IMG/VR virus record: IMGVR_UViG_3300045996_004591
Span: 1,462 to 65,461 of that record
Direction: 5' to 3' (one strand)
Origin: a virus
Lineage: Duplodnaviria; Caudoviricetes
DNA length: 64,000 bases
Part shown: positions 6,341 to 54,333 of the stretch, one piece after another
Position numbering within the stretch: position 1 is the first letter of the stretch
Layout of the letters: the number at the start of each line of letters is the position of its first letter
The notes under the pieces: model-generated
The model's input: the letters and a program-made list of their open reading frames with translations, nothing else
The model's database searches: none
Told to the model about the DNA's origin: nothing
Position numbers and translations under genes: made by a program

Positions 6341-6375
6341 ATTGGTGCAGCCGCGCGAGGCGGCTGGCTTGTGGT

Positions 6376-7014: not shown

Positions 7015-7037
7015 GGTTTCTCCGGGAGTTGTGGGGT

Positions 7038-7388: not shown

Positions 7389-7459
7389 GGTTTCTCCGGG
7401 GTGAAGGGAAAGGTGCCGGGCACTGTGATGGGGTCGGGCGGCCCGGCGTTGAGCCCGAT

Positions 7460-28084: not shown

Positions 28085-28086
28085 CC

Positions 28087-28701: not shown

Positions 28702-28723
28702 ACCCAACCAGGAGCACAGCACT

Positions 28724-29443: not shown

Positions 29444-29462
29444 GCCGCAGCGCCCCACCACG

Positions 29463-29486
29463 AGCCCGCCACGTGCGGGCTTTTTC
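29463..29486 (+). terminator. Intrinsic terminator
   Basis: GCCCGC-CACGT-GCGGGC-TTTTT. Confidence 0.8.
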
Positions 29487-29506
29487 ACGTCTGTCGATAC
29501 CAAGCA

Positions 29507-29549
29507 CCCCCCAGTCGGGGATGCACGAAACACGCGCGCACGCGACATT
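29507..29549 (+). promoter_or_regulatory. Late promoter 2 (CCCCCCAGTCGGG + GACATT)
   Basis: Same motif and spacing; lies just after a terminator. Confidence 0.75.
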
Positions 29550-29551
29550 GC

Positions 29552-29665
29552 GCCTGCGATCTGGCAACGGGTCGCAGGCCCGGACGGCAAGCGCAAGTGG
29601 CTTCGGCTCTTTGCACCTGCCCTACCGGAAATCCCTTCCGCGGCGACTGCGACAAGTCGTAGGGA
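29552..29665 (+). promoter_or_regulatory. Structured 5' leader of the scaffold/capsid operon
   Basis: GCAA- and UUCG-capped hairpins; CCCTAC/GTAGGG stem covering the SD. Confidence 0.55.
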
Positions 29666-29673
29666 ATGAAGCA

Positions 29674-30642
29674 ATGACGACGCAAGCAGAGTTTTTCCAG
29701 ACCCACGCGGTCGACGGTGTTCTAGACGACAAGCTGATGGCGCAGATGCTGAATCTGCCCGAGGGCGATAGCGGGGAACCTCCCCCGCAAGGTGGGCAGC
29801 CCGAACCCACACCAGCTCCGACGCCAGCACCGGCGCCAGTGGAACCTACGCCAGAACCGACCCCGGCGCCAACGCCAGAGCCGGTGATTCTCGCAAAGGA
29901 TGGTGTTCACACCATCGGCTACGAGAAGCTGGTGGAAGCGAGGGAAGAAGCGAGATTGGCCAAGGCCCGGGCCGACGCGCTGGAAGCGGAGAACGCGACG
30001 CTGAAAAGCACCGCCCCACCGCCCCCGGCAGCGACGCCCGCCCCGACGAGTGCACCCGCACCCGCCGAGGACAAGCCGGACTTTGGTGATTTCTCGGATG
30101 AAGCGCTGGCCAAGGGAATCGAGAAGTTGGTGGAGCAACGCGTGGCAGCACGGGTTGAAGCCGCGGTAGCCGAAGCAGTCACCCCGTTCCAGAAACGGGC
30201 CGCCGAGGACGCCACCACCTCCCACTTCACGAGGATCTATTCGGCGCATCCGAACATGGATTCGATGCTGGAAAGCACCGAGTTCAAGGGGTGGTTGGAA
30301 GGCCAACCGTCCCTCGTGCGATCAGCCTACGCCACGGCCCTGGACAAGGGCACAGCGGATCAGGTGATCGAGGTGTTCGATTCCTTTGCGAAGGCGACTG
30401 GAAAGACCCAGGCCCCGCCGCCGCCGGCACCCGCGAAACCCGCGGACGTGGCAGCAGCAGCGAAGGCAGCGGTCGACGCAGCAGCGGCCAAGCCGCCAGC
30501 GAGCCTCACGGACATCCCGGGCTCCATGGCAGTGCACGACGAGGCAGCGGCGATGTTGGAAATGTCACCGGAAGCGCTCTTGAGGAAGTTCGAGGGGAAG
30601 ACCCCGGAACAAATCGAGGCGCTGATGAGAAAGGCGCTGTAG
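29674..30642 (+). CDS. Capsid scaffolding protein
   Basis: ILAKDGVHTIGYEKLVEAR, Pro-rich linkers; directly before MCP. Confidence 0.8.
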   Translation: MTTQAEFFQTHAVDGVLDDKLMAQMLNLPEGDSGEPPPQGGQPEPTPAPTPAPAPVEPTPEPTPAPTPEPVILAKDGVHTIGYEKLVEAREEARLAKARADALEAENATLKSTAPPPPAATPAPTSAPAPAEDKPDFGDFSDEALAKGIEKLVEQRVAARVEAAVAEAVTPFQKRAAEDATTSHFTRIYSAHPNMDSMLESTEFKGWLEGQPSLVRSAYATALDKGTADQVIEVFDSFAKATGKTQAPPPPAPAKPADVAAAAKAAVDAAAAKPPASLTDIPGSMAVHDEAAAMLEMSPEALLRKFEGKTPEQIEALMRKAL

Positions 30643-30675
30643 GCGCCCAGTCCCTAAACACTGAAGGAGTTTCAC

Positions 30676-31953
30676 ATGGCTACCAATGTCCCCTACGGCT
30701 CGGCGCAGGCAATCACGCTGCAGTCGGCCGGCCTGTTCGCTGCCAACATGCAGCGCAACACCACCATCAACCGCCTGACCGGCAAGTTCCCGCAGCAGTC
30801 GGATGCGGAGTCGAACCTGCGCTCGCAGTCCAGCTCCAAGATGCCCATCGTCAAGTGCATGGACCTGCAGAAGATGGCGGGCGACGAAATCACGTTCGAC
30901 CTGATCAACCCGATGGGCGGCAAGCCGATCATGGGCGGCAACGTCGCCGAAGGCCGCGGCCGTGCGATGACGTTCTCGCAAGACCGGCTGCGCATCAACC
31001 AGGCGCGCTACCCGATCTCGGCCGGCGACACCATGACGCAGCAGCGCACCCCGCACCAGATGCGCGGGCTGGCTCGCGCCGAGGGTGAGAGCTACATGAA
31101 CCGCCTGCAGGACCAGCTCGCGCTGGTGCACATGGCCGGTTCGCGCGGCTTCCACAGCAACATCGAGTGGGCTGTTCCCCTCGCCTCGGACGCGGACTTC
31201 GCCGACATCGCGGTGAACACCGTGAAGGCGCCGACCAAGAACCGGCACTTCATGTCCACCGGCTCCGGGATCGAGATCATCAAGGCCTCGGGCAACGAGA
31301 TCACGCTGGCCACCACCGACGTGATGAACGCCGACGTGGTCGACGGGATCCGCACCTACGTGGACTCGATGCCCCTGCCGCCGCCCCCGGTCGTGTTCGA
31401 GGGCGACAAGATGGCCAGCGACGCGCCCCTGCGCGTGCTGCTGGTCTCCAGCGAGCAGTACACGAGCTTCGTGCAGTCCACGGGCTTCCGCACCCTGCAG
31501 GCCAACGCCATGCAGCGCGCCTCGCAGGCGGGCAACAACCCCCTGTTCATGGGCGAAGCGGGCCTGTGGAACGGCATCCTGATCGTGAAGATGCCCAAGC
31601 CGATCCGGTTCTACTCCGGTGACTCCCTGGCCTGGTGCGCAAGCTACACCAGCGAGACCGAGACGACCACGGACCTGGTGCCCGCGTCGTTCTCGACCAC
31701 CTACGCGGTGGACCGGGCGATTCTGCTGGGCGGGCAGGCCTTGGCCGAAGCGTGGGGCAAGCACAAGAAGTCCGGCTCGCCGTTCTTCTGGAGCGAGAAG
31801 GAGCTCGACCACGACGACAAGCTGGAACTGCTGGTCGGCGCTGTCAACGGCCGCTCCAAGATCCGCTTCCTCATCAACCACGGCGACGCCTCGCAGTACA
31901 CCGACTACGGTGTGATGTGCATCGACACCGTGGTGCGGATCAGCGGCCAGTAA
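30676..31953 (+). CDS. Major capsid protein, N4-gp56/DUF4043 family
   Basis: PYGSAQAITLQSAGLF, DLQKMAGDEITFDL, DQLALVHMAGSRG, DYGV. Confidence 0.92.
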   Translation: MATNVPYGSAQAITLQSAGLFAANMQRNTTINRLTGKFPQQSDAESNLRSQSSSKMPIVKCMDLQKMAGDEITFDLINPMGGKPIMGGNVAEGRGRAMTFSQDRLRINQARYPISAGDTMTQQRTPHQMRGLARAEGESYMNRLQDQLALVHMAGSRGFHSNIEWAVPLASDADFADIAVNTVKAPTKNRHFMSTGSGIEIIKASGNEITLATTDVMNADVVDGIRTYVDSMPLPPPPVVFEGDKMASDAPLRVLLVSSEQYTSFVQSTGFRTLQANAMQRASQAGNNPLFMGEAGLWNGILIVKMPKPIRFYSGDSLAWCASYTSETETTTDLVPASFSTTYAVDRAILLGGQALAEAWGKHKKSGSPFFWSEKELDHDDKLELLVGAVNGRSKIRFLINHGDASQYTDYGVMCIDTVVRISGQ

Positions 31954-32022
31954 TGGCGACAGGGCCCGGGCTAACCCCCCGGGCCTGACTCCAAACCCCT
32001 TCATCTTCCAGGAGAACCTTTC

Positions 32023-32508
32023 ATGGCAAACGTCACCAAGAAGCAGCTGGCGCAAGAGCTCCAGTTCGGCAGCGGCGCCCCTTACGGCAACTACACGGGC
32101 CTGCACTTCACGTTCGAGACCAACGCCTCGGGCGTGTACGTCAACAGCGACCAGACCACGGCGGTCGTTCAGACCAACGTGGTTCGCATCGGCATCCTGC
32201 CCGCGGGCATGCGGCTCGATGACTGCCTGGTCATGATCAGCGACGCCTTCACGGCTTCGGCGACGGCGGACATCGGCTTCGCCTATGTGGACGGCACGGA
32301 TGTCACGGCCACGCCGCAGGACGCCGACTACTTCGACGCCGCCCTGGCGCTCGATGGCACGACCCGCACCCGCGGGCTGAACCTGGCCGTGCGCCCGGTC
32401 AAGCTGCCCAAGGACGCGTACCTGACGCTGACCATCGCCGGTGCTGACCTGGCCGCGGTGGGCAAGCTGGACGTCATCGTCTACGGCGTTCTGAACGCTG
32501 CACCGTAA
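32023..32508 (+). CDS. Capsid-associated (cement/decoration-like) protein
   Basis: VRIGILPAGMRL...DIGFAY; follows MCP. Confidence 0.7.
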   Translation: MANVTKKQLAQELQFGSGAPYGNYTGLHFTFETNASGVYVNSDQTTAVVQTNVVRIGILPAGMRLDDCLVMISDAFTASATADIGFAYVDGTDVTATPQDADYFDAALALDGTTRTRGLNLAVRPVKLPKDAYLTLTIAGADLAAVGKLDVIVYGVLNAAP

Positions 32509-32525
32509 GCGGTGAACCCGAGAGA

Positions 32526-32549
32526 GCTGGGCCTTCGGGCCCGGCTTTT
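32526..32549 (+). terminator. Intrinsic terminator after capsid genes
   Basis: GCTGGGCC-TTCG-GGCCCGGC-TTTT. Confidence 0.75.
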
Positions 32550-32569
32550 GTGCATTCACAGGAGAGCCC

Positions 32570-33439
32570 ATGAAACGAGAACTGATCGCCGCCGCCTGCC
32601 ACACCATCAACGCTGCGTACTGCGCGGCCATGGGCGACACCTCGCAGCCCGCATGGGCTGATGCGCCCGACTGGCAGAAGGCCAGCGCCCTTGCCGGCGT
32701 TGACATGCACCTTGCCAACCCCGACGCCACCCCCGAGGCCTCGCACGAGTCCTGGCTGGCCCAGAAGACCGCCGAAGGCTGGAAGTTCGGCAAGGTTAAG
32801 GACGCCAAGAAGAAGACCCACCCCTGTTTCCTGCCCTATGCGGAGCTGCCGGCCGAGCAGAAGGCCAAGGATCACCTGTTCCGCGCCGTCGTGCACGTGC
32901 TCAAGGACCTGCCCGACGAGGCCGCCCCCCTGGATGCCGAAGCCGCGGCGGCTGAGCGCGCTGCGATGCGCGCTGAGGTCATGAACGAGCTGCGCGCCGA
33001 GTTCACGAGCAGCGCGAAGGCTTACGTGGCCCAGGCCAAGGCGGCAACCACCGCCCCCAAGGGCTCGCCCGTGGCCGTGCGCTACATCGGCCACCGCCCC
33101 ACCTACAAGGAGGGCACCTACGGCACCGGCATTCTGTTCACCAAGGGCAAGAGCGAGTTCGTGCCCGCTGACAAGGCTGCGCAGCTGCTGGTGCACAAGG
33201 ACGTCTACGAGCCAGGCGACGCCAGCGAATGCGGCGAAGTCGTGATCGACAAGAAGGTCACCGACGACAGCGACGATCCGGTGCAGATCGCGCGTGACTC
33301 CATCGCCGTGAGCGGCAAGGAAGCGCTGGAAGCCTATGCCCGCGTGCACTTCGGCGTCGAGTTGGACCGCCGGCACACGGTCGAAGCCCTTCGCGTGCAC
33401 GTCACCGGCCTGCTCGATCAATACGGCTTGGGTGACTGA
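32570..33439 (+). CDS. RyR-domain protein
   Basis: SHESWLAQKTAEGWKFGKVKDAKKKTHPCFLPYAELPAEQKAKD. Confidence 0.85.
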   Translation: MKRELIAAACHTINAAYCAAMGDTSQPAWADAPDWQKASALAGVDMHLANPDATPEASHESWLAQKTAEGWKFGKVKDAKKKTHPCFLPYAELPAEQKAKDHLFRAVVHVLKDLPDEAAPLDAEAAAAERAAMRAEVMNELRAEFTSSAKAYVAQAKAATTAPKGSPVAVRYIGHRPTYKEGTYGTGILFTKGKSEFVPADKAAQLLVHKDVYEPGDASECGEVVIDKKVTDDSDDPVQIARDSIAVSGKEALEAYARVHFGVELDRRHTVEALRVHVTGLLDQYGLGD

Positions 33440-41058: not shown

Positions 41059-44000
41059 ATGGCCGACACCAATCCGTTTGCCGATCCCAACTTCGGCGCG
41101 GACGCCGCAAACCCCTTCTCGGACCCGAGCTTCGGCAAGCCGTCCGGCGCGATTCGCCGTCTTGCCGACAAGGCCGTCGGCTTCGGTGCCGGTGCTGCCG
41201 GCGCGACCAAGGCCATCGCTGACGTCGCCGGTGCGGGCAACCCCGTCTCCGGCGTGCTCGACAGCGCCACCAGGGGCCTGAACAGCCTGCTCAGCCCGGA
41301 AGCGCAAGCCGACCAGGCGCAGCAGCAGGCCATCATGGCCGAGGCCAACGGCAAGGGCCTCTGGGAAGGCGTGAAGGCCGGCGCCCGTGCGTTCGGTGTC
41401 GCCCCCGTGCAGACGGCGGTGACCGGACTGGGCTCAGTGGTTCCTACCGTGGCGGCAGGCCTGGCCACCGGCGGCGCGTCGGTTCCGGCATCGCTGGCCA
41501 CCATGGGCGCGATCGGCCTGGCGCAAGGGGCGGGTACCGTGAAGGGCGCCATCTACGACGACGTGCGCGAGCGCTCCACCGATGCGGGCATGAGTCCCGA
41601 GGATGCGCAGGCCGCGGCGACGCGTGCGCAGGAGTTCAGCGGCCCCAACGCGGGCAATATTGCCATCGGCGCCGGGCTGGGCGTGGGTGACGCGCTCACC
41701 GGTGTGACCAAGGTGGCCACTTCGATGCTGCGCCGCGGCGTGGGCAAGGCCGCGCTGGCCGAGGGCAGCACGCGCGGCGTCATGGCGCGCACCGGGCTTG
41801 GCATCGCGGGCGAAATGCCGCTGGAAATTGCCCAGGGCGGGCAGGAGAAGTACGCCGCCAACGTCGCCTCCGCGCGCCAAGGCTTCGATGTCGACCCGAT
41901 GGAGGGCGTCGCGGCGCAGGGCACGCTGGAAGGATTGGCCGCAGCCGGTCCCGGCGCTGCCTTCGGTGCGTTCAACAAGGCGCACCCTGCACTAGTCACC
42001 CCGCCGCCGCCCGCGGCACCGCCCGCCGGCCCGATGACCGCCGCGCTGATCGCCGGTGGCCAGTGGAAAGCGCTGGGCGTTGCCGATCCGCAGGACGACC
42101 TCGCACGCCAGAAGCGCATCAGCGAGACCGGGCAGGCCTGGCAGGACATCGCCCCGACGACGCCGGCCGAGGATCTGGCCGCGCAAAAGCCACTCGAGCA
42201 GCGCGCCTCCGAGGAAGCCGGCGCCGCCGCCTCGCGCGCCACGGATGAACGTATTGCCGCTGTGGGCAAGCAGTGGCAGGACCTGGGCATCACGGACCCG
42301 TCTACCGACCTGCAGCGCCAGCGCGCGGGCCTGACCCCGGCCGAAGAGCGCGGCGTCGACGCCAACGCTGGCCCCCTGTCCGGCGCCGCTGCGATGGCGC
42401 TGAATGCCGGTGTCACGCAGGGCATGGAAGCGCAGAACGCCGAGACCGCCAACGACATCACCGACGGTGGAACCCCGTTTAAGGGCGCCATTCCCGCGCG
42501 CCGCGCTGCCGATAAGGCCGGGGAGGGCTGGAGCGTGGTGAAGGTGCAGGACGGCTATGTCGTTCGCCCCTCGCCCGAAGTCGTCCGGACCGCCGAGAGC
42601 GGCAAACCCACCGAACCTGCGAAGGCCACCGATGCGAAAGCCACCGCTGCCCAATCCGCGCCCGCCGCGGCTGCCCCGGTTCCTGAGACTGGCCGCACAG
42701 CGACTGCGCTATCACCCGCACCAGTTCCAGCGGCTGGACCTGCTGGCACTGGCGCTGACGCCAACCCGGCACTGAAGGGAGTTCCCAATGGTCAGCGACA
42801 AGGAGAAGGTACGCCACCTGCTGGAGTCGGCGCGGCGCGAGTCCAACCTGGCCCTGATCGAGCGCAACCGCCGGCAGTACGAACAGAAGCGCCAGGCAAG
42901 ACGGCTGATGCAGCAGGCGCTGCAGGCGGCGCAACGCAAGGAGCCAAGCCGCTGACACTGGGCTCGATGCCCAACCAGGCCGAGCCTGTGACGGTCAAGG
43001 ACGGCGTGATCCACGTAGGCAAGTTGCCGGCGCTGAACTTCGACACGGGCGCGCCGATCGTCGCCCCCCGGGACGCCACGGCCACGCAGATCAAGCAGCT
43101 GCTCAAGGACGCGGGCGCGGTCGGAAACAGGCAGAGATTCTTTGGTGGAACGGAGCAAACCAGTGCAGCGCAACCCCAGTCGCAAGACACTCAAACGCCA
43201 GTTGCAGCGCGACCTGGACCGCAGAAGGCCGAAGCCGGAGCAGCCGCCGCGCCAGCAGGAAACACCGCCGGCGTGGAAGCCGCTGGGGTAGCACGCCCGG
43301 CCAACTGGCGCACCAACTTCATGGTTGCCACGCAGGTCGCCAAGAGCGTCGGAATCCCCTACGAGCAGGGCCGCAAGCTGGCCGATCTGGTGGCGATGGT
43401 GGACGCGAAGGATGGCAAGGCGCCGCCCAACGAGAGCGACCAGGACCGCAGCAACCGCGAGTTTGCCGAGAACTATGGGCGCGTGACCGGGAACATCAAG
43501 GCGTCGACGGACAAGGAGATCGACCGCGCGATCATGTTCTCCGAGAAGCAGTTCTCCAACCTGCAACCCAAGGCGTGGGCCGGCGACGAGCAGGCCAAGC
43601 GCATGATGACGGCCTATGAGCAGGAAGCCGAGGGCCTGAAGCAGGAGCAGCGCATCCGCAAGGGGCAGGACCCCGTCACCGGCAAGAAGCCGGTTACGCC
43701 GCAGGTGCCGCCCGCCGCCAGCGCCAACACCGTATTCACGCAGGATGCCGCGGCAGTGGCGCGCGCGCTGATCAAGGCCCGCCTGGCTAAGCCCGCCGCC
43801 ACGACGGACACCACCCCTGCCGCCGAAGTGCTGCGCGGCGCCGTGGACGTCATGCCCGCGGCCGACAAGGCCACGCTCGAGGCGCACTACGGTGAGAAGC
43901 CCGGCACTGCCGCCTTCTTCGACCGCGTGCGCGATGACGTCGCCACCTTCGTCAACAAGGGTGCCGCGGCCATTGCCTCGGGTATTCGCAGCATCATCAA

Positions 44001-47000
44001 GAGCCTGGCCGAGGGCGTGCTGGCGCTGGGCATCGTGTTCAACCCGATGGGGCTGAAGACCGACTACAGCTTCGATCTGCCCGCCGTCCACAAGCAGACC
44101 ATCACCCAGACCCGGCAGGTGAAGGCCGAACCGCCGCTGGAGGCGATCGCCGGCATGTCCGGCCCAGCCATCACGGTCTACGAGAACATGGCCCCCACGG
44201 CCAAGACCTCGGGCAAGGGGTTCATCATCGCGGACAAGCCCGCGGGCATGATGCACGTGTTCGCCGCCGACGGCTCGCTGATCGCGCAGGACACAGCGCT
44301 GTACGGCAAGGACAAGGGCGACCGGATGGGCGTTTCGTCGCTCAAGGGTGGCCCGAAGGTGACCCCGGCCGGCGGGTTCGCGCTGCGCTGGGCTGAGAGT
44401 GAATACGCCGGCGGCCAGCAGCTGGAACTGGTGGGCTCCGAGGACGCGGACGGCGCGGTCATTGCCGTGCACGCCGCCTGGCTGGGCGACCCGAAAGAAA
44501 AGCGGGCCGAACGCCTAGCCAGCCTGACCGCCGATGACAACCGCATCAGCTACGGGTGCATCAACAGCGCCCACGACACATTCCTGAACAAGGTGCTGCC
44601 CGAGGCCCCGAACCTGGACGGCGGCATGGCCTTCGTGCTGCCCGACGAGTCGGACGCGGGCGCCCTGTTCCCGGCCGGCACGACCACCGAAACCACCACC
44701 ATCGAGGCAGCCGAGCGCAACGCGCGCGAGGGCACCGTGGGCGGCCAGCAAATGGGCATGGGCGGGCGCGCTCGCACCGCAACCCGTTCGGGCACGCCGC
44801 CGCGCGGGCTGGATCCAGAATTGACGCAGGCCGGCATCACCATGGCCGGCTTCCACATCGAGGGCGGTAGTCCGACCTTCGCGTCCTATGCCCGCGCCAT
44901 GCTGGACGACCTGGGCGAGGCCGTGCGCCCGTACCTGAAAAGCTGGTACATGGCCGTCAAGTACGACCCGCGCGCTGGAGATTTCAGCGCCAAGATGAGC
45001 ACGGCGGGCTTCGTGGAGGAATTTGACCTCGCGCACATCGCGGCGCCGTCCGACAGCCCAGCGGTTGAAAAATCCGGCCCGAGCGCCGATACTGGAGACT
45101 CAAATGCCGCAGCAACACGCCGCCTGGATCAGTCAGGCACGAGCCCACTGGAAGGAATACCGTCCGGCGATGTACGCGCGCCTGCAGGAAAGCGGCCGGC
45201 TGGAGCAGGAGCTGCAGGAGGCCGCAACGGCGACCAGCCAGGCGGTGGCCGTGCTGACCCGGCAGGGCGCGACCTGGCAGGAGGCCTGGGAGCAGACCCG
45301 GGAGCAGTACCTGTTTCCCCCAGAGGAAACGCCGACGCAGCGCCAGCCGGAAAGCCTGGGGTTCAAGGCCCACAAGGGGCTGATGCGCGACCTGGGCGAG
45401 CTGAAGATGCCGGGCGAGAAGTAGCGCCCAACGCGCCGCCCATCCCGGCGCCGCAGTACACCCCGCCCGCAGACTTCACCATCGACGCCGAGCTCGCGCT
45501 GGGCGAAGGCGGGCAAAAGACCAAGTTCCGCAACAACGTCGCGGCGATCACTCTGCTCAAGAAGCTGCTGGCCGAGGGCTTGCAAGCCTCCGCGGACGAG
45601 CAGCAGGTGCTGGCCAAGTACGTCGGCTGGGGCGGCCTGCCGCAGGCCTTCGACGCCAACAACCGGGAATGGGCCAACGAGCACGCCCAGCTGAAGGAAC
45701 TGCTGGACGACAAGGAGTTCTCGGCCGCGCGCCGCTCGACCCGCTACGCCCACTACACCAGCCGCGAAATCATTCAGGATGGTATCTACGCGGCGCTGCG
45801 CCGCTTTGGCTTCACCGGGGGCCGCGCGCTGGAAGGCGGCGCCGGCGTGGGCAACTTCATCGGGCTCATGCCGCAGGACCTGCGCGCTGCCGGCCGGGTG
45901 ACGGCCATCGAGCGCGAGCCGATCGCCGCGGGCATTGCCCGCAACCTGTACCCGAACCAGAGCGTGCAGCTGGCCAACTTTACCGAGTTCAAGGGCACGG
46001 ACGGTTACTTCGACGTGGCGATCGGGAATCCTCCCTTCGCCAGCGACCCGCAAACCGACCGGTCCGGACGCAAGCACCTGTCAGGGCTGTCTCTGCACAA
46101 CTACTTCTTCGCCAAGGAAGTGGACATGCTGCGCGAGGGCGGCATCCTGGCGCAGGTAGTGACCAACAGCTTCCTGGACGCCGCAGGAGACAAGGCGCGC
46201 AGCTACATCAGCGACCGCACCCGGTTCCTGGGCGCCATCCGGCTGCCGAACAACGCATTCAGCAAGAACGCCGGCACCGAGGTCACCACCGACCTGATCT
46301 TTCTGCAAAAGCGCCCTGAGGCCGAGTGGGGCACCAAAGCCACCCGCGCCGAGGCCAAGGCCTGGCTGGACGTTGTCAAGGTCACCGACGCGCGCAAGGG
46401 CGTGGCCTTGAACATCAACCAGTATTTCAAGGACCACCCGGAAATGATGCTGGGCGACTTCGGCGCCCACGGCACGATGTATGGCCCAGACCAGCCGGCA
46501 CTCGTTGCCCGCAAGGGGCAGGACACGTTGGCGATGCTCAAGGAAGCCGTCAAGCGCCTGCCCGATGCGGTGTACGTCGACCGCGCGACGCTCGGCACCG
46601 ACGCCGCCGTCGACGCCGCGATCAAGGCGCTCACCCGCCCGCCCGTCCAGGAGGGCGGCTTCTTCGTGGACGAGCAGGGCATCCTGACCCAGCGCGTGAA
46701 CGACATAGCCGGGGAGGCGCGCGGGCGCGAAATCAACGCCGAGACCCAGTGGACGGCCAAAACCAAGCTGGGCGAAGCCGGCGCGGCCAAGATCCGCTCG
46801 CTCGCTGCGATGCGAGTCACCCTGCGCTCGCTACTGGCGGCCGAACTGGCCGACGAGGTGGACAAGGCCACCGCACTGCGCGCCCAGCTGAACACCCAGT
46901 ACGACGGCTACACCAAGGAGCACGGGCTGCTGAACGACACGGCGACGGCGCGGGTGTTCGATGACGACCCGGACTTTCCGCTCCTGCTGTCGCTGGAGCA

Positions 47001-50000
47001 CAACTATGTGCCCGGCATCGGGATTGCCGCGGCCAAGCGCCAGAACCTCAAGCCCACCAAGAGCACGGCGACCAAGTCGCCCATCTTCAAGCGCCGCGTG
47101 GTCGACAGCCGCAAGGCCGTGCAGAAGGTGGAGACGCCTGCCGATGCGCTGGCCGTTTCGATGGCCGAGCGCGGCAAGCTCGATACCGCCTACATCGGCA
47201 AGCTGCTGGGCAAGGCGCCCGAGGACGTGCTGGGCGAGTTGAGCACCGGCGCCAAGCCGCTGCTGTTCCTGGACCCGGCCACCGACGAATACGTGCTGCG
47301 CGACGCCTACCTGTCGGGCAACGTGCGCGAAAAGCTCGCGCAGGCCAAGGCCGCGGGCTTGTCGACCAACCAGCGTGCGCTCGAGGCGGTGCAGCCGCAC
47401 GACGTCGGCGCCCACGAAATCAGCGCCCGCGTGGGCTCGCCCTGGGTGCCCACGGCGGTCTACGAGGACTTCGCTAAGGAACTGTTCGGCGAGGGCACCA
47501 CCGCCTCGATCAAGTACGTCAAGCTCAATAGCTCCTATGCCGCGTACATTCACGCCGGCTCGGACGTCAACGCCACCAACAAGTGGGGCACGAAAGACTA
47601 CAGCGGCCCGGAACTGATCAGCGCGCTGCTGAACAACCGCACCATCAAGGTCACGTGGACGGACAAGGAAGGCACGCACGTGGACCAGCCGGCCACCGAG
47701 CAGGCCAACCTGAAGGCCCAGGAGATCCGTGAACGCTTTCAGGACTGGCTTTTCAGCGACGCGGCCCGATCCGAAGTGCTGGTACGCGCCTACAACGACA
47801 CCAACAACAACTATGTGACGCGCGAGTACGACGGCACGTGGATGACGTTCCCGGGCAAGGTCCCCAATGACGTGATCAAGTTCCGCAGGCACCAGCGCAA
47901 CGCGATCGCCCGCATCGTGCAGGACCGCACCGCGCTGCTGGACCATGTGGTCGGCGCCGGCAAGACCTTCACCGTGGTGGCCGCCGCAATGGAGCTGCGC
48001 CGCACGGGCCTGGCGCGAAAGCCCATGGTGGCCGTGCCGAACCATCTGGTCAAACAGTGGGCCGCCGACTTCTACCGCCTGTACCCGGGCGCCAACATCC
48101 TCACGGCCACCAAGAAGGACTTCGAGAAGATCAACCGCCGCCGCTTCCTGGCCAAGATCGCCACCGGCGACTGGGACGCCGTGGTCATCGCGCACAGCTC
48201 GTTCGGGTTCATCAAGCCCGGCACCGAGTTCGAGGCCAGCTTCAACGACCGGCAGGTGGCCCTGATCATGGAAACGATCAAGGCCGTGCAGGAAGAAGAA
48301 GGCGACGAGCGCGCCAAGAAGCGCACCGTCAAGCAGTTGGAGGGCATGCAGGAGCGCCTGGAGAACCGCATTGCCAGCCTGCGCGACAAGGCCATGGACG
48401 ATCTGCTGGACTTCGAGCAGTTGGGCGTGGACCAGCTGTTCGTGGACGAAGCGCACATGTTCAAGAACCTGATGTTCTCCACCAAGATGCAGGGTGTGCA
48501 GGGGCTGGGCGACGCCAAGGGCAGCCAGCGCGCCTATGACATGTACGTGAAGTCCCAGGAGGTGATGGAAAAGAACGGCCGCGGGCAGGGGCTGGTGTTC
48601 GCCACCGGCACGCCGGTATCCAATTCGCTGGCCGAGAAGTACCACATGATGCGGTACCTGATGCCCCGGCAGATGCAGGAGCTGGGCTTCCAGAGCTTTG
48701 ACGCCTGGGCCAACACCTTCGCCAGCGTCGAGCAGGTCTGGATGCAAAAGCCCAGCGGCGATGGCTACAAGGCCAGCAACCGCATGAGCAACTTCGTGAA
48801 CGTGCACGAGCTGCTGAAAATGTTCGACCAGGTGGCCGACACGGTCACCATGGACGACATCAAGAAGGCCTACCGCGAGGAAAACGAGGGCAAGGAGTTC
48901 CCCATCCCGCCGCTGAAGACCGGGCGCCGGCAGCCCGTGTCGCTGGTCAAGTCGCCCGCGCAGGAGGCCTACATGGCCGACATCGCCGCGCGCGCGAAGG
49001 TGCTGGAAAGCCGCAAGGGCCCGCCGCAAAAGGGCGAAGACAACATCCTGGTGATCATGGGCGACGCCCGCAAGGCCGCCATGGACGTGCGCCTGGTGGA
49101 CCCGGACGTGACCGAGCGCGAAAAGGGCGGGCGCATTGACAAGGCCGCCGACAACATCCTCACGCGCTATCGCAAGTTCAACGCCGTGCGCGGCACCCAG
49201 CTGGTGTTCTCCGACCTGGGCACGCCCAAGAAGCACGCCCAGGCCGAACTGAAGGAGTACGACGCGCTGCAGGCCCGCATCGACGCGGCAACCGACGACG
49301 TGCGGCTGCGCGCATCGCTGGGCGCCGAGGAAGCCCAGGCGCTGGTGGATGACGCCGAGGATGCCCAGGAGGCCATGGACAAGCAGGGTCCGGACTGGCT
49401 CACCGCCGTCAAGGCCGCCCAGCGCGGTTTCAGCGTCTACGACGACTTGAAGGATGCGCTCATCGGGCGCGGCATCCCCGAGCACGAAGTCGCCTTCATC
49501 CACGACTACAACACCGACGAGCGCAAGGCTACCTTGTTCCGCAAGGTCAACGCCGGCGAGGTGCGGGTGGTGATCGGCTCCACCGCCAAGATGGGCGCGG
49601 GCACCAACGTGCAGGAGCGCGCCGTCGCGCTGCACCATCTGGATGTGCCGTGGCGCCCGTCGGACGTGGAACAGCGCGAGGGCCGTATCGAGCGGCAGGG
49701 CAACAAGCTGCTGGAGGAAATCCCGGGCTTCGAGGTAGAAATCCTGGCCTACGTGACGCAGGACACGCTGGACATGCGCATGTGGCAAATCCAGGAGGTC
49801 AAGCTCAAGATGATCAACCAGCTGCGCACGCGGCAGATTGACCGGGACATCGACAACGCCTTCGAGGATATGGAAATGTCGGCCGGCGAAATGCAGGCAG
49901 CGGCGACCGGCAACATGGATTTGCTGCTGGAGATCCAGGCCCGCGCGGACATCAAGAAGCTCGAGCAGAAGGCGCGCAGCTTCGACGCGCAAAAGAGCGA

Positions 50001-53000
50001 CCTCATCAACCGCAAGAGAAGCGCCGCCGCCCGGCTCGCGCAGCTGCCCGCGCAGATCAAGAGCGCCGAGGTGCTGGCCGAGGGCTCCACGCAGTACGCG
50101 CAGGCGATCGAGAAGCAGACCGCTGCTTTCAGCGTCAACCTGGACGGCACGGACTTCACTGACCGCCAAGCCGCCAGCGCGTACCTGCTGGAGAAAATCG
50201 ACGCGCGCATTGCCGACCCGGACAAGAAGCCCGGCGAGGATGGTGAGCCGGCTACCAAGGCCGCACCGCTGGACGTGAGCATGAACGGCGAGCGCTACAC
50301 GGCGCGCGCCAAGCTGCAGGAGGCCTGGAGCAACGCCGCCGGCGACCGCGACCCCATCCAGTGGCAGTACGAGGGCAAGACCTACAACCGCCGCAGCGCG
50401 ATCGCCACGGCCATCCGGCAGCCCGTGGCCGACGCGTTGGCCGACGAAACGCAGGTGGTGCTCGGCAAGATCGGGCCGTTCGACGTGATCGGCGAGGGCC
50501 AGCAAAGCAAGTTATGGGGCTCCATGATCGAAGTCGTTCTCTCCTACAAGGGCGAGAAGATGGACAGCACGTTCAGCGCGGGCGAGAAGCCTGACACGCT
50601 GAAGATGGCCGAGCAGATCGCCTCATGGGCTGACCGCAAGGCCTATGGCGCCAAGTTCGAGCTCCAGCACCTGCAGGGCAGCCTGCGCAGCGCGCAAGAA
50701 GCCGCCGCCGATCTGGAAAAGGCCGAAGACCTGGGCGAGTGGCCCGACCGGCCCAAGCTGGAGGCCGCGCGCGAGAAGCACAAGGCGATTCTGGCCCGCC
50801 TGAACGGCGCCGGCGCCAAGCCCTTGACCGAGGCCGGCGACTACGACCCGGCCGGCGACAGCTCCGAGGCGGGCAACACCACGGACGTGGTCTTCTCCAA
50901 GAAGCCCGACACCGCCAGTCAGCGCGCCGCCGATGCGGCCACCCGCATGCAGCCCAGCGCCGTGCAGCAGGCCGTCTCCGAACTGACCCGCGACTGGCTG
51001 CGCAAGCCGGAAATCGTCATCCTGGAGAACATGCGCGACGATAAGGTACCGGCCGCGGTGCAGCGGGAATACCAGCGCCAGGAAAGCCAAGGCGGCTCAG
51101 GCGATGTTCAAGGCTTCCACATGAGCGGCACGGTTTACATCGTGTCCGACTCGATGAGGAACGCCCGGGACGTGCAGGAGGTGCTGTTCCATGAATCGCT
51201 GGGCCACTTCGGCATGCGCGGCTTCTTCGGCAAGGCGCTGAACCCGATGCTCGAGGAAATCGTCGCTACCCGGAAGTTCCAGGTGGCCAAGAAGGCGCGC
51301 GAGTACGGGCTGGACATGAGCAAGGGCGCCGACCGGCTGATGGCGGCTGAGGAAGTGCTGGCCGAGCTGGCGCAGACCCGGCCCGAGTTGAGCATCGTGC
51401 AGCGCGCCATTGCGGCGATCCGCACGTGGCTGCGCGAGCACGTGGCCGCGTTCAAGGACTTGGCGCTGACGGACGCGGAAATCATCAACCGCTTCATCCT
51501 GCCGGCGCGCGGCTTCGTGGAGCGCGGCACCTCGGGCAAGGCGACGTTCACCCGCGGGCCGGCAAGCCGTCCGCAGGCATCGCTTGAACCCCGCACCGAC
51601 CGGGTGCAGTTCAGCAAAAAGTCCGTCTTGACCGGCCAGGACATCCCCAGCACGTGGCAGGGCCCGGACGCCTCCAAGCTGGACGACGTGATCTATTCGA
51701 TGCAGGACAAGCACGTCGACACCCGCCGGGTGGTGCAGGCGGTGCGCGCGGCGATCGGCACCATTGACGACCAGCAGGACCCGTACCTGCAGGAAGAGCT
51801 GTTCCACGGCCGCGCCGCAATGGCCACCAAGGAGTTCCTGGAAAAGAGCCTGCGCCCGCTGCTGAACGACCTGCAGGCGCGCAAGGTGGATATGTCCGAC
51901 CTCGAGGAATACCTACACAACCGGCACGCCGAGCGCCGCAACATCCAGGTGGCCAAGGTCAACCCGGCCATGCCCGACGGCGGCTCCGGGATCAAGACGG
52001 CCGACGCCCGTGCCTACCTGGCCGCTCTGCCGGCCGACAAGCGCGCCGCCTACCAGGCGCTGGCGCAGCGGGTGGACGCCATCAACCGCGAGACCCGGGC
52101 CCTGCTGGTGTCCTCCGGGTTGGAAAAGCAATCCACCATCGACGCCTGGCAAGCCGCCTACGGGGATGAGTACGTGCCCCTGATGCGCGAGGACATGGAC
52201 AACGCCTCCACCGGCATCGGCCAGGGCTACAGCGTCAAGGGCAGCGCCAGCAAGCGCGCGCTGGGCAGCAACAAGCCGGTGGCCAACATCATCGCCAACA
52301 TCGCGCTGCAGCGGGAAAAGACCATCACCCGGGCCGAAAAGCGCCGCATCGGCGAGGCGGTGTACGGCCTGGCCCTGAAGGCGCCGAACCCGGAGTTCTG
52401 GTTCGCGGTGGATCCGAAGCTGCAGCAAAACCCGGCCAACGTCACCGCGGCGGCCATCCAGTTGATCAGCATGGGGCTGGACCCGATGGACGCGGCCAGC
52501 ATCGCCAAGGAGCCGACCCAAAGCTACATCGACCCGACCACCAAGCAGGTGACCCAGCGCATCAACCCGGCGCTGCGCAGCATGAACAACGTGCTGGCCG
52601 TTCGGGTGGACGGCGAGGACAAGTTCGTTTTCTTCAACCAGAAGGACGAGCGCGCGATGCGCATGGCCACGGCCTTGAAGAACCTGGACGCCGACCAGCT
52701 GGGCACCGTCATGGGCACAGTGGCCAAGATGACTCGGTATTTCTCGGCCATCAACACCCAGTACAACCCGATCTTCGGGGTGACCAACATCACGCGGGAC
52801 GTGCAGACGGCCCTCCTGAACCTCAACTCGACGCCCTTGAAGGACCACAAGGCCGAGGTGATGAAGCACATCCTGCCGGCGCTGCGCGGGATCTACATCG
52901 ACCTGCGCGACCACCGAGCCGGCAAGCAGCCGACGTCCTCCTACGCGCAGATCTTCGAAGAGTTCCAGCGCGAGGGCGGGGCCACGGGCTACCGCGATAT

Positions 53001-54333
53001 GTACGCCAACGCCAAGGACCGGGCCGAGGCGATCGCCGACGAGCTCAAGGCGATCAAGCAGGGCAGGGCCATGAGCGTGGGCCGCGGCATCATGGGCTGG
53101 CTGTCCGACTACAACGAGTCGATGGAGAACGCCGTGCGCGTCTCGGCCTACAAGGTGGGCAAGGAGCAGGGCCTGTCCAACCAGCAGGCCGCGAGCCTGG
53201 CCAAGAACCTGACGGTGAACTTCAACCGCAAGGGGCAGGTGGCGCTGCAGGCCGGTGCGCTCTATGCGTTCTTCAATGCTTCGGTTCAGGGCACGGCGCG
53301 GATTGCGCAGACCGTGTTCGCCGACGGCAAGCTGTCCGCCACGGGCCAGAAGATCATGGCCGGCGGGCTGCTGCTGGGTGCGATGCAGGCGCTGCTGCTG
53401 GCCGCCGCGGGCTTCGATGACGACGAGCCGCCGGACTTCGTGCGCGAGCGCAGTCTGGTGTTCCCGGTGGGCGGCGGCAAGTACGTGTCCATCCCCATGC
53501 CGCTGGGCTTTCACGTCATCCCCAACCTGGGGCGGATCCCGACCGAATGGGCGATGGGCGGATTCAAGAACACACCCAAGCGCATCGGGCAGATGGTGGG
53601 CCTGTTCGCCGACGCCTTCAACCCGATGGGCTCGGCCGGGCTGTCGCTGCAGACCCTGACCCCGACCATCATCGACCCGCTGGCCGCGCTGTCGGAGAAC
53701 AAGGACTGGAGTGGCCGGCCGATCGCCAAGAAGGACTTCGATGCGATGCACCCGACGGCAGGGCACACCCGGGCGCGCGATACCGCCACCCCTTGGGCGC
53801 GGCTCATGTCCTACGGGATGAATGCGCTCACGGGCGGGACCGACTTCAAGCCGGGCGTGGCCAGCCCGATGCCGGACCAGATCGACTATCTGATCGGCCA
53901 GGTCACCGGCGGCGTGGGCCGCGAGGTGGGCAAGCTCTCGCAGGTGGCCAGCGGAACCCTGTCGGGCGAAGAAGTGCCGATGCACAAGATCCCGCTGGTC
54001 GGGCGCTTCGTGGGCACCACCGAGGGCCAGTCTGCGGAGTCCTCGCGCTTCTACAACAACCTGCGTGAGCTCGGAGCGCACAAGGTCGAGATCGACGGGC
54101 TGCGCAAGGAGAACCGGGGAGCCGAGGTGCTGGGCTACATCCGGGACAACCCGGCCGCGGCGCTGGTGCCGATGGCCGAGCGGGCCCACCGGGAGGTCGC
54201 CAAGCTGCAGGCGGCCAAGCGGGCGCTGATCAACAAGGGCACGCCGCCCGACCAGGTGAAGTTCCTGGACATGCGCGCCACCTCGATGATGAAGGCGCTG
54301 AACGAACGGGTGCGGACGACTGAGGGGGGTTAG
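41059..54333 (+). CDS. Giant polyvalent ejection-type protein: LDT-like + DarB-like N6 MTase/SNF2 helicase + zincin-like + LPD38-like
   Basis: VHAAW..ISYGCIN; LEGGAGVGNF and GNPPF; VGAGKT, DEAH, TGT, QREGRIERQG; HESLGH; C-terminal LPD38-like region. Confidence 0.9.
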   Translation: MADTNPFADPNFGADAANPFSDPSFGKPSGAIRRLADKAVGFGAGAAGATKAIADVAGAGNPVSGVLDSATRGLNSLLSPEAQADQAQQQAIMAEANGKGLWEGVKAGARAFGVAPVQTAVTGLGSVVPTVAAGLATGGASVPASLATMGAIGLAQGAGTVKGAIYDDVRERSTDAGMSPEDAQAAATRAQEFSGPNAGNIAIGAGLGVGDALTGVTKVATSMLRRGVGKAALAEGSTRGVMARTGLGIAGEMPLEIAQGGQEKYAANVASARQGFDVDPMEGVAAQGTLEGLAAAGPGAAFGAFNKAHPALVTPPPPAAPPAGPMTAALIAGGQWKALGVADPQDDLARQKRISETGQAWQDIAPTTPAEDLAAQKPLEQRASEEAGAAASRATDERIAAVGKQWQDLGITDPSTDLQRQRAGLTPAEERGVDANAGPLSGAAAMALNAGVTQGMEAQNAETANDITDGGTPFKGAIPARRAADKAGEGWSVVKVQDGYVVRPSPEVVRTAESGKPTEPAKATDAKATAAQSAPAAAAPVPETGRTATALSPAPVPAAGPAGTGADANPALKGVPNGQRQGEGTPPAGVGAARVQPGPDRAQPPAVRTEAPGKTADAAGAAGGATQGAKPLTLGSMPNQAEPVTVKDGVIHVGKLPALNFDTGAPIVAPRDATATQIKQLLKDAGAVGNRQRFFGGTEQTSAAQPQSQDTQTPVAARPGPQKAEAGAAAAPAGNTAGVEAAGVARPANWRTNFMVATQVAKSVGIPYEQGRKLADLVAMVDAKDGKAPPNESDQDRSNREFAENYGRVTGNIKASTDKEIDRAIMFSEKQFSNLQPKAWAGDEQAKRMMTAYEQEAEGLKQEQRIRKGQDPVTGKKPVTPQVPPAASANTVFTQDAAAVARALIKARLAKPAATTDTTPAAEVLRGAVDVMPAADKATLEAHYGEKPGTAAFFDRVRDDVATFVNKGAAAIASGIRSIIKSLAEGVLALGIVFNPMGLKTDYSFDLPAVHKQTITQTRQVKAEPPLEAIAGMSGPAITVYENMAPTAKTSGKGFIIADKPAGMMHVFAADGSLIAQDTALYGKDKGDRMGVSSLKGGPKVTPAGGFALRWAESEYAGGQQLELVGSEDADGAVIAVHAAWLGDPKEKRAERLASLTADDNRISYGCINSAHDTFLNKVLPEAPNLDGGMAFVLPDESDAGALFPAGTTTETTTIEAAERNAREGTVGGQQMGMGGRARTATRSGTPPRGLDPELTQAGITMAGFHIEGGSPTFASYARAMLDDLGEAVRPYLKSWYMAVKYDPRAGDFSAKMSTAGFVEEFDLAHIAAPSDSPAVEKSGPSADTGDSNAAATRRLDQSGTSPLEGIPSGDVRAPAGKRPAGAGAAGGRNGDQPGGGRADPAGRDLAGGLGADPGAVPVSPRGNADAAPAGKPGVQGPQGADARPGRAEDAGREVAPNAPPIPAPQYTPPADFTIDAELALGEGGQKTKFRNNVAAITLLKKLLAEGLQASADEQQVLAKYVGWGGLPQAFDANNREWANEHAQLKELLDDKEFSAARRSTRYAHYTSREIIQDGIYAALRRFGFTGGRALEGGAGVGNFIGLMPQDLRAAGRVTAIEREPIAAGIARNLYPNQSVQLANFTEFKGTDGYFDVAIGNPPFASDPQTDRSGRKHLSGLSLHNYFFAKEVDMLREGGILAQVVTNSFLDAAGDKARSYISDRTRFLGAIRLPNNAFSKNAGTEVTTDLIFLQKRPEAEWGTKATRAEAKAWLDVVKVTDARKGVALNINQYFKDHPEMMLGDFGAHGTMYGPDQPALVARKGQDTLAMLKEAVKRLPDAVYVDRATLGTDAAVDAAIKALTRPPVQEGGFFVDEQGILTQRVNDIAGEARGREINAETQWTAKTKLGEAGAAKIRSLAAMRVTLRSLLAAELADEVDKATALRAQLNTQYDGYTKEHGLLNDTATARVFDDDPDFPLLLSLEHNYVPGIGIAAAKRQNLKPTKSTATKSPIFKRRVVDSRKAVQKVETPADALAVSMAERGKLDTAYIGKLLGKAPEDVLGELSTGAKPLLFLDPATDEYVLRDAYLSGNVREKLAQAKAAGLSTNQRALEAVQPHDVGAHEISARVGSPWVPTAVYEDFAKELFGEGTTASIKYVKLNSSYAAYIHAGSDVNATNKWGTKDYSGPELISALLNNRTIKVTWTDKEGTHVDQPATEQANLKAQEIRERFQDWLFSDAARSEVLVRAYNDTNNNYVTREYDGTWMTFPGKVPNDVIKFRRHQRNAIARIVQDRTALLDHVVGAGKTFTVVAAAMELRRTGLARKPMVAVPNHLVKQWAADFYRLYPGANILTATKKDFEKINRRRFLAKIATGDWDAVVIAHSSFGFIKPGTEFEASFNDRQVALIMETIKAVQEEEGDERAKKRTVKQLEGMQERLENRIASLRDKAMDDLLDFEQLGVDQLFVDEAHMFKNLMFSTKMQGVQGLGDAKGSQRAYDMYVKSQEVMEKNGRGQGLVFATGTPVSNSLAEKYHMMRYLMPRQMQELGFQSFDAWANTFASVEQVWMQKPSGDGYKASNRMSNFVNVHELLKMFDQVADTVTMDDIKKAYREENEGKEFPIPPLKTGRRQPVSLVKSPAQEAYMADIAARAKVLESRKGPPQKGEDNILVIMGDARKAAMDVRLVDPDVTEREKGGRIDKAADNILTRYRKFNAVRGTQLVFSDLGTPKKHAQAELKEYDALQARIDAATDDVRLRASLGAEEAQALVDDAEDAQEAMDKQGPDWLTAVKAAQRGFSVYDDLKDALIGRGIPEHEVAFIHDYNTDERKATLFRKVNAGEVRVVIGSTAKMGAGTNVQERAVALHHLDVPWRPSDVEQREGRIERQGNKLLEEIPGFEVEILAYVTQDTLDMRMWQIQEVKLKMINQLRTRQIDRDIDNAFEDMEMSAGEMQAAATGNMDLLLEIQARADIKKLEQKARSFDAQKSDLINRKRSAAARLAQLPAQIKSAEVLAEGSTQYAQAIEKQTAAFSVNLDGTDFTDRQAASAYLLEKIDARIADPDKKPGEDGEPATKAAPLDVSMNGERYTARAKLQEAWSNAAGDRDPIQWQYEGKTYNRRSAIATAIRQPVADALADETQVVLGKIGPFDVIGEGQQSKLWGSMIEVVLSYKGEKMDSTFSAGEKPDTLKMAEQIASWADRKAYGAKFELQHLQGSLRSAQEAAADLEKAEDLGEWPDRPKLEAAREKHKAILARLNGAGAKPLTEAGDYDPAGDSSEAGNTTDVVFSKKPDTASQRAADAATRMQPSAVQQAVSELTRDWLRKPEIVILENMRDDKVPAAVQREYQRQESQGGSGDVQGFHMSGTVYIVSDSMRNARDVQEVLFHESLGHFGMRGFFGKALNPMLEEIVATRKFQVAKKAREYGLDMSKGADRLMAAEEVLAELAQTRPELSIVQRAIAAIRTWLREHVAAFKDLALTDAEIINRFILPARGFVERGTSGKATFTRGPASRPQASLEPRTDRVQFSKKSVLTGQDIPSTWQGPDASKLDDVIYSMQDKHVDTRRVVQAVRAAIGTIDDQQDPYLQEELFHGRAAMATKEFLEKSLRPLLNDLQARKVDMSDLEEYLHNRHAERRNIQVAKVNPAMPDGGSGIKTADARAYLAALPADKRAAYQALAQRVDAINRETRALLVSSGLEKQSTIDAWQAAYGDEYVPLMREDMDNASTGIGQGYSVKGSASKRALGSNKPVANIIANIALQREKTITRAEKRRIGEAVYGLALKAPNPEFWFAVDPKLQQNPANVTAAAIQLISMGLDPMDAASIAKEPTQSYIDPTTKQVTQRINPALRSMNNVLAVRVDGEDKFVFFNQKDERAMRMATALKNLDADQLGTVMGTVAKMTRYFSAINTQYNPIFGVTNITRDVQTALLNLNSTPLKDHKAEVMKHILPALRGIYIDLRDHRAGKQPTSSYAQIFEEFQREGGATGYRDMYANAKDRAEAIADELKAIKQGRAMSVGRGIMGWLSDYNESMENAVRVSAYKVGKEQGLSNQQAASLAKNLTVNFNRKGQVALQAGALYAFFNASVQGTARIAQTVFADGKLSATGQKIMAGGLLLGAMQALLLAAAGFDDDEPPDFVRERSLVFPVGGGKYVSIPMPLGFHVIPNLGRIPTEWAMGGFKNTPKRIGQMVGLFADAFNPMGSAGLSLQTLTPTIIDPLAALSENKDWSGRPIAKKDFDAMHPTAGHTRARDTATPWARLMSYGMNALTGGTDFKPGVASPMPDQIDYLIGQVTGGVGREVGKLSQVASGTLSGEEVPMHKIPLVGRFVGTTEGQSAESSRFYNNLRELGAHKVEIDGLRKENRGAEVLGYIRDNPAAALVPMAERAHREVAKLQAAKRALINKGTPPDQVKFLDMRATSMMKALNERVRTTEGG
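42788..42955 (+). CDS. Overprinted +1-frame ORF, 55-aa basic helical protein
   Basis: AAGGGAG SD; G/C third-position bias in the +1 frame; MVSDKEKVRHLLESARR. Confidence 0.5.
   Translation: MVSDKEKVRHLLESARRESNLALIERNRRQYEQKRQARRLMQQALQAAQRKEPSR
45104..45424 (+). CDS. Overprinted +1-frame ORF, 106-aa TnpV-like protein
   Basis: GGAGA SD; codon bias switches to the +1 frame; HWKEYRPAMYARLQESGRLEQEL. Confidence 0.7.
   Translation: MPQQHAAWISQARAHWKEYRPAMYARLQESGRLEQELQEAATATSQAVAVLTRQGATWQEAWEQTREQYLFPPEETPTQRQPESLGFKAHKGLMRDLGELKMPGEK

Follow-up and report, generated by a model that had tools for sequence, protein, structure and literature searches.

A small open reading frame (ORF) encoding 55 amino acids (aa), here called ORF2, is probably a live gene nested in the +1 frame of a giant DarB-like gene in a Bcep22-like prophage. 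It lies at positions 42788-42955 on the plus strand of the window that we analysed, a stretch of 64,000 nucleotides (nt) covering positions 1,462 to 65,461 of the IMG/VR provirus record IMGVR_UViG_3300045996_004591, which has 65,461 bases and 66% GC. The giant gene occupies 41059-54333 on the same strand and encodes a polyvalent virion protein of 4424 aa in a single open frame, which we refer to as frame 0. Two lines of evidence carry this reading. The ORF2 region has the codon usage normal for the genome in the +1 frame and lacks it in the giant frame, and since the split from the nearest relative the changes in this region appear mostly to have spared the ORF2 protein and to have freely altered the frame-0 peptide.

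ORF2 is the middle one of three ORFs that the initial annotation had described as a cluster of small genes in the linker of the giant gene, and all three are present in the +1 frame of 41059-54333. ORF1 (42632-42775, plus strand) encodes 47 aa from an ATG at 42632 to a TGA at 42773-42775, with a longer form of 72 aa from an ATG at 42557. ORF2 starts with the ATG at 42788 and ends with the TGA at 42953-42955. ORF3 (43163-43291, plus strand) encodes 42 aa from a GTG at 43163, or 49 aa from a TTG at 43142, and ends with the TAG at 43289-43291. Across the three ORFs, frame 0 translates into Ala-, Pro- and Gly-rich sequence, as had been described. ORF1 and ORF2 share one +1 frame with the TGA and four codons between them, and the Shine-Dalgarno (SD)-like motif AAGGGAG (42775-42781, plus strand), 6 nt upstream of the ORF2 ATG, uses the last base of the ORF1 stop as its first A. 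The frame-0 residues K-G-V, which spell this motif, are identical in P0002, the nearest relative of the giant protein. A GGAG is found 8 nt upstream of the ORF3 GTG.

The order of stop, SD and ATG, read earlier as operon-like, is in the sequence, but the SD-like motifs are at chance level. We found that the +1 frame of the giant gene holds 115 stop-to-stop runs, of which 34 have at least 47 codons and 29 have at least 55, and that an SD-like match of at least 4 nt at a working spacing precedes 22 of its 76 +1 ATG or GTG codons (29%). The lengths and motifs of the three ORFs are thus what chance gives in a gene of 66% GC. ORF2 lies wholly inside 41059-54333 on the same strand and in another frame, and hence is a nested overlap. 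A product of programmed ribosomal frameshifting is excluded, as the +1 frame is closed by the TGA at 42773-42775 four codons before the ORF2 ATG. No sigma-70-like promoter or terminator-like site was detected in 42300-43500, and the predicted RNA fold of 42670-42810 is no better than that of shuffled sequences (z -0.2).

The codon usage of the giant gene, in contrast, does depart from chance here. A sliding-window check of the GC content at third codon positions (GC3), proposed in the initial annotation, showed that GC3 does leave frame 0 in this region, falling from 0.88 to 0.35-0.55 over 42630-42960. In the 120-nt windows starting at 42688-42838 the frame-0 GC3 is 0.35-0.42, and the first codon positions, equivalent to third positions in +1, reach a GC content of 0.80-0.93. 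Read in the +1 frame, the first, second and third positions there have GC contents of about 0.70, 0.40 and 0.90, the normal pattern of the genome; the giant gene as a whole has 0.67, 0.47 and 0.88 in frame 0.

We trained a codon model on the 23 other long ORFs in the window and flagged any window in which an alternative frame scored more than 10 bits above the true frame. The true genes score 0.58 +/- 0.21 bits per codon in this model and their +1 frames -1.11 +/- 0.28. None of the 638 windows in the 23 other genes was flagged, compared with 20 of 438 in the giant gene, all of them in favour of the +1 frame. The 20 windows fall into three clusters, at 42619-42980, at 43129 (one weak window) and at 45049-45500. 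For ORF2 the model gives +0.40 bits per codon in the +1 frame as against -0.77 in frame 0; the corresponding values for the 3' half of ORF1 (42680-42772) are +0.18 and -0.88. The 5' half of ORF3 scores 0.01 in +1 and -0.95 in frame 0; ORF3 as a whole is near 0 bits per codon in +1, and its frame 0 is atypical over the 5' half only. No frame is preferred in the 5' half of ORF1 or in the 3' half of ORF3. The sense +1 frame is the best of all six for ORF2, for the 3' half of ORF1 and for a further ORF starting at 45104 which is described below, and an antisense gene was therefore dropped as a source of the signal.

ORF2 belongs to a family of small proteins found elsewhere as gene calls. With the +1 stretch as query, phmmer returned five matches from a set of 1.84 billion representative proteins; three of these matches are proteins of 51-53 aa aligned over their full length. 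The other two, P0006 and P0007, are TPR-repeat proteins with seven matched stretches each and were discounted as products of repeats or composition. P0011 (55 aa, 89% identical to ORF2) and P0012 (54 aa) came from a profile search. The family, P0008-P0012, thus consists of proteins of 51-55 aa that are unnamed, or called "hypothetical protein" where the source names them. Their identities to ORF2 are 89, 57, 57, 51 and 43%, and the alignments run from Met1 to the end with gaps only in the C-terminal tail. Ten columns are invariant among the six sequences: M1, D4, K7, R9, N20, I24, E25, N27, R28 and R38. P0011 is nested in the same way as ORF2 (see below). P0008 was called as a separate gene on its 66.8-kb contig.

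The family is therefore rare, as ORF2 has no match in Pfam or PHROGs, none was found in the phage records and the three related records discussed below, and the 401 genomes discussed there gave no convincing one. The free-standing homologues for which the initial annotation proposed tBLASTn searches did not appear in the phage records for any of the three ORFs; the phmmer and profile searches did find homologues for ORF2. The best scores for ORF2 in a protein atlas, 0.77 and 0.76, are below the useful level. We also observed two shorter relatives, P0016 (at offset 553) and P0014 (at offset 710), whose frame 0 is compatible with an ORF2-like +1 peptide with z scores of 5.3 and 4.7; these scores come from a best-case two-frame decoding and are upper bounds, to be set against a background maximum z of 3.7 over 39,989 offsets, and are suggestive only. 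The site in P0016 is not directly beside the conserved domain that follows ORF2 in the window.

The predicted structure of ORF2 is one helix over residues 4-51 (pLDDT 92). The protein has 15 Lys/Arg and 7 Asp/Glu, giving a net charge of about +8, and has neither Cys nor a hydrophobic leader; the neighbouring genes are head and virion genes. An Rz1-type spanin was considered and rejected, since ORF2 carries no lipoprotein signal and does not sit in a lysis cassette.

Our comparison with P0002 and P0011 suggests that ORF2 is under purifying selection in the +1 frame. P0002 keeps the same frame 0 through the whole region, which rules out a sequencing or assembly error as the source of the arrangement because it comes from an independent assembly. 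When P0011 is compared with P0002 in two frames, the codons are compatible at 56 of 56 positions (55 of 56 for the protein of the window itself), so P0011 is the nested ORF of a P0002-type giant gene. We derived the unique minimum-change DNA satisfying both P0002 and P0011 and compared it with the window. The two differ at 21 positions, 20 of them inside ORF2, and these 20 changes are distributed over the first, second and third positions of the +1 codons as 2, 5 and 13 (chi-square p 0.008). They alter 6 of 55 residues in ORF2, compared with 15 of 56 in frame 0. With a neutral non-synonymous rate of 0.76 in +1, the probability of at most six protein-altering changes among 20 is 1.6e-5. An inferred triple change in the P0002 lineage, from aga to cgg, preserves Arg38, which is invariant in the family. 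The window and the P0002/P0011 lineage, which differ at ~12% of the nucleotides of ORF2, both retain it unbroken and with an unchanged start and stop.

Directly upstream of ORF2, a block of 30 frame-0 codons (42697-42786, plus strand) shows no residue change between P0001 and P0002, in contrast to the ORF2 overlap, where 15 of 60 frame-0 codons change. This block could reflect constraint on both frames, an element leading into ORF2, or a recent exchange.

Our data fit a history in which the giant frame overprinted an older small gene during the fusion of two modules, since it is the +1 frame and not frame 0 that has genome-like codon usage in the overlap. Immediately downstream of the overlap lies a conserved frame-0 domain, KPLT...FFGG (42946-43149, plus strand), which has 31 invariant columns in alignment A3 of five giant proteins and normal frame-0 codon usage (+0.46 bits per codon), and whose first codons overlap the last codons and the stop of ORF2. 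Overprinting by fusion fits because this domain is present in many relatives of only 987-1984 aa and because the corresponding region in the metagenome-assembled locus L002 is divided into several ORFs. The giant frame would be the younger reading, crossing the older small gene in what is that gene's -1 frame. The mean stop-free run in the giant gene is 93 codons in the +2 (that is, -1) frame compared with 37.5 in +1; the -1 runs are long because codons in the -1 frame begin at third positions of the real frame, which are GC-rich. A -1 crossing of a gene is hence the likeliest to stay open, with codons starting with G or C, i.e. those for Ala, Gly, Pro and Arg. The outcome here would be a disordered Ala/Gly/Pro-rich linker between two modules of the giant protein, and frame 0 must stay open because of the domains further downstream. 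On the late transcript of the virion module, translation of ORF2 may start at its own SD and ATG, and its product, a basic single helix of ~48 residues, would most likely bind nucleic acid or a partner protein.

Several points weigh against ORF2 being a live gene. The substitution test is a parsimony reconstruction from two proteins, P0002 and P0011, that lie on different contigs. A blastn search against plasmids and phages returned no relative of the region, and pattern scans of viral and metagenome contigs with queries derived from the window, P0002, P0008 and A1 gave none that was confirmed. The test cannot register a change silent in both frames, and parsimony undercounts changes. The direct contrast between 13 changes at the first and 5 at the third frame-0 position reaches only p 0.048, and the interchange of Ala, Pro, Ser and Thr tolerated in a linker would by itself favour changes at the first frame-0 position. 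P0008, P0009, P0010 and P0012 are free-standing only in the sense that gene callers called them. No homologue of ORF2 was found by tblastn in 50,697 phage records, nor in L002-L004, whether within 6 kb of the conserved domain or across the whole records. No convincing one was seen in 401 genomes of one order, where three partial matches (E 0.003-0.009) were regarded as noise since they lie inside long unrelated frames or contain a stop. SD-like motifs as strong as that of ORF2 precede 29% of the +1 starts by chance, and the function suggested for ORF2 is guessed from its charge and fold alone.

The alternative that survives best, although we consider it rather unlikely, is a relic: a small gene, or part of a foreign operon, would have been captured or frameshifted into the linker, leaving ORF2 and the 3' half of ORF1 as unexpressed remains that owe their +1 signature and open frame solely to the recency of the event. 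The +1 signature begins abruptly near 42680, in the middle of ORF1, and ends at 42955, which resembles a fragment holding the 3' end of a gene, an SD and a small gene. The distant giant relatives P0003-P0005 and L002-L004 have a different and shorter linker without an ORF2 homologue. However, a decaying fragment does not explain why ORF2 is intact in two lineages ~12% apart with changes that avoid altering its protein, nor why homologues at 43-57% identity retain its length and the ten invariant residues. The frame-0 third positions have also not drifted towards the GC3 of 0.88 of the genome.

A hidden operon of three expressed nested genes working together, as the initial annotation proposed, is improbable. 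It could draw on the single +1 frame of all three ORFs, the atypical frame-0 codon usage beneath parts of each, the ORF1 stop abutting the ORF2 SD, and the 30 unchanged codons before ORF2, which could reflect constraint on both frames. But neither ORF1 nor ORF3 has a match in Pfam, in PHROGs or, by tblastn, in the 50,697 phage records, and against the nested ORFs of the other giant genes they gave only short low-complexity matches. Their lengths and SD motifs are at chance, half of each ORF carries no frame signal, and the gap between ORF2 and ORF3 is occupied by a normal frame-0 domain of ~190 nt with several +1 stops. Between P0001 and P0002, frame 0 has four residue changes and a one-codon gap across ORF1 and seven residue changes across ORF3, numbers too small to decide. 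ORF1 and ORF3 are therefore most likely not separate genes, and the proposal of an operon of basic peptides is not supported. The related idea that the giant gene captures small genes out of frame is partly supported: it fits ORF2, given its homologues and the apparent selection in +1, but is not supported for ORF1 or ORF3. The 3' half of ORF1 may be a remnant of older +1 coding DNA that is now cut off, since it shares its frame with ORF2 and only the TGA and four codons separate them, or it may be a conserved lead-in to ORF2.

That all three are ordinary alternative-frame ORFs of a GC-rich gene, with odd codon positions produced by an Ala/Gly/Pro linker, agrees with the chance-level lengths and SD motifs and with the raised GC that such linkers have at codon positions 1 and 2, and it remains tenable for the 5' half of ORF1 and for ORF3; for ORF2 it is contradicted and very improbable, as amino-acid content does not explain a drop of the frame-0 GC3 to 0.35-0.42 where the genome has 0.88, and chance leaves unexplained the absence of flagged windows among the 638 controls, the full-length homologues and the substitution pattern.

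Besides ORF2 as a probable live nested gene, the giant gene carries a TnpV-like ORF (45104-45424, plus strand) which appears to be a genuine nested gene. It encodes 106 aa in the +1 frame with a GGAG 6 nt before its ATG. In the codon model it reaches +0.46 to +0.47 bits per codon in this frame, as opposed to -0.71 to -0.72 in frame 0. It matches positions 2085-2165 of phrog_938 with an E value of 6.7e-13, and the Pfam family TnpV (PF14198) with 19.9 bits (E 7.5e-4), which is below the gathering cut-off of 27. A tblastn search with it returned 21 records of 12 phages, and we examined nine of these phages (L008-L016), leaving out LASTA, SJM3 and Stean. In seven of the nine, i.e. PEp14, Pavtok, SopranoGao, Mwe-JY07, POI1126, VvAW1 and Atu_ph08, the match is placed inside the annotated giant CDS at offset 1 modulo 3, and none of the seven records has another feature annotated over it. 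This arrangement is a precedent for ORF2 in the same gene.

The TnpV-like ORF has a conserved SD, ATG and MNLNNW-type start. All nine phages have an ATG at the same aligned position with an SD-like motif upstream, and the giant frame has no stop across the TnpV-like ORF in eight of the nine, the exception being PBC5. A fusion of this ORF to upstream sequence by frameshifting is excluded in PEp14, Pavtok, SopranoGao and VvAW1, where a stop closes the +1 frame 2-5 codons upstream of the ATG. In VvAW1 the giant frame is unlikely to be open over 114 codons by chance, because this phage has a GC content of only 50%. A frame scan trained on each phage itself flagged the TnpV-like ORF in all seven giant genes scanned. 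Every flagged segment was in the +1 frame. Apart from the TnpV-like ORF, they comprised ORF2 together with the 3' half of ORF1 in the window, an ORF of 76 aa shared by PEp14 and Pavtok, and a single segment of Atu_ph08. Between PEp14 and Pavtok, 15 of 105 residues of the TnpV-like ORF differ, compared with 21 of 106 in the giant frame, and its nucleotide changes are spread as 10, 11 and 16 over the codon positions. On the two sides of the ORF, in contrast, third positions of the giant frame account for 44 of 64 and 33 of 35 changes. The initial annotation had treated the TnpV-like ORF and the three-ORF cluster as one system; our data favour the former as a nested gene, but its tie to ORF2 is limited to their shared position.

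Two of the nine phages show other arrangements. In Sinorhizobium phage PBC5 (L009, record positions 26155-32697) the TnpV-like domain forms the C-terminal end of a 2180-aa CDS, in frame with the part upstream, and the split of the giant gene there is either a real frameshift or an error in an old sequence. In Pseudomonas phage Itty13 (L010, record positions 7117-7311) the match, its SD and its ATG are antisense to a CDS annotated as a "hypothetical protein" (5006-8467), which may have been annotated on the wrong strand.

Further +1 ORFs were seen in related giant genes. The 76-aa nested ORF with a GGAGG SD lies at L017 29540-29770 in PEp14 and L018 2510-2740 in Pavtok, ~2.2 kb upstream of the TnpV-like ORF. 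It is unlike ORF1-3, and 24 of its 76 residues differ between the two phages compared with 33 of 77 in the giant frame. A basic 45-aa +1 ORF with an AGGAG upstream is present in the giant genes of two IMG/VR contigs (L003 6785-6922 and L004 6785-6922), where the four nucleotide differences between the two copies are too few to judge selection. In the giant gene of Atu_ph08, L021 11360-11881 has +1 codon usage above that of the annotated frame (best window +11 bits) with an open run of 173 codons.

We tentatively consider, with somewhat less confidence than for ORF2 itself, that the DarB-like giants of Bcep22-like and related podophages may hide a functional layer of small genes, always in the +1 frame and located in their linkers, and that these proteins may have grown by module fusion across genes still alive beneath. 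The layer would include an ancient TnpV-like gene common to phages of Erwinia, Klebsiella, Vibrio, Ochrobactrum, Agrobacterium and Microcystis, and lineage-specific members such as ORF2 here and the 76-aa ORF in Pavtokvirus. The linkers would then be small genes read out of frame rather than spacers grown in place.

The assignment of the host gene follows from its domains, its neighbours and its relatives P0002-P0005. The giant protein has Pfam matches to an Eco57I-type methylase, ResIII/SNF2, Helicase_C and LPD38 (E 2.2e-43). It thus combines several effector domains, including an LPD domain, in one polypeptide within a virion module, as expected for a polyvalent or DarB-like protein. Terminase, portal, major head, head-closure and internal-virion genes lie upstream. 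Four giant relatives were found, of which P0002 is the nearest with 82% identity across 496 aligned residues, and among sequenced phages its relatives, which belong to Bcep22-like and allied podophages, carry the annotation "DarB-like antirestriction". Such a protein is reported from virions of phage JC1 (PMC9144972).

Embedded genes as such are familiar in phages. Rz1-in-Rz spanin genes occur in lambdoid and many other phages, an embedded Rz1 is annotated in phage PEp14, and another is described for the Bcep22-like phage JC1 (PMC9144972). ORF2 is similar in being a small gene wholly inside a larger one on the same strand, in another frame and with its own start, in the same phage group. It differs in that it has no lipoprotein signal and lies outside the lysis module, its host is a giant virion gene with the overlap in a linker, and the small gene appears to be the older of the two frames in this case. 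Of two overlapping frames, the one with codon usage nearer that of the genome is usually taken as the older. Overprinting has been described for overlapping genes of viruses in general (PMC8227390; bioRxiv 10.1101/229690). The present case resembles it, with one DNA read in two frames as an ordered protein with genome-like codons and a disordered stretch with odd codons; unlike it, the younger reading here is not a new gene but a linker fusing polyvalent modules, so that the overlap would be a by-product of gene fusion.

The host protein shares with the polyvalent proteins (PMC5512222) and with the DarB-like gp75 of Bcep22 and gp69 of JC1 (PMC9144972) many effector domains, including LPD38, a methylase and an SNF2 helicase, in one virion-associated polypeptide. 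The terms frameshift, overlapping, TnpV and linker are all absent from the accessible text of PMC5512222, and that of PMC9144972 mentions no frameshift or nested gene in the DarB-like gene. The open-access literature covered held nothing on nested genes in DarB-like or polyvalent proteins. Embedded overlapping genes are known in phages; as far as our searches reach, their location in the linkers of giant polyvalent proteins and the direction of the overprinting are new.

Same-strand nested genes are not reportable by gene callers, and the TnpV-like ORF is unlisted in all seven annotated phage records. If such nested genes are live, the gene content of the whole phage group is undercounted. Some phages of this group are under study for therapy, and deleting or truncating the giant antirestriction gene would at the same time affect the genes nested in it. 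The arrangement suggests a route by which the linkers of giant multidomain proteins in GC-rich genomes may arise, namely fusion via the stop-poor -1 frame of a small gene.

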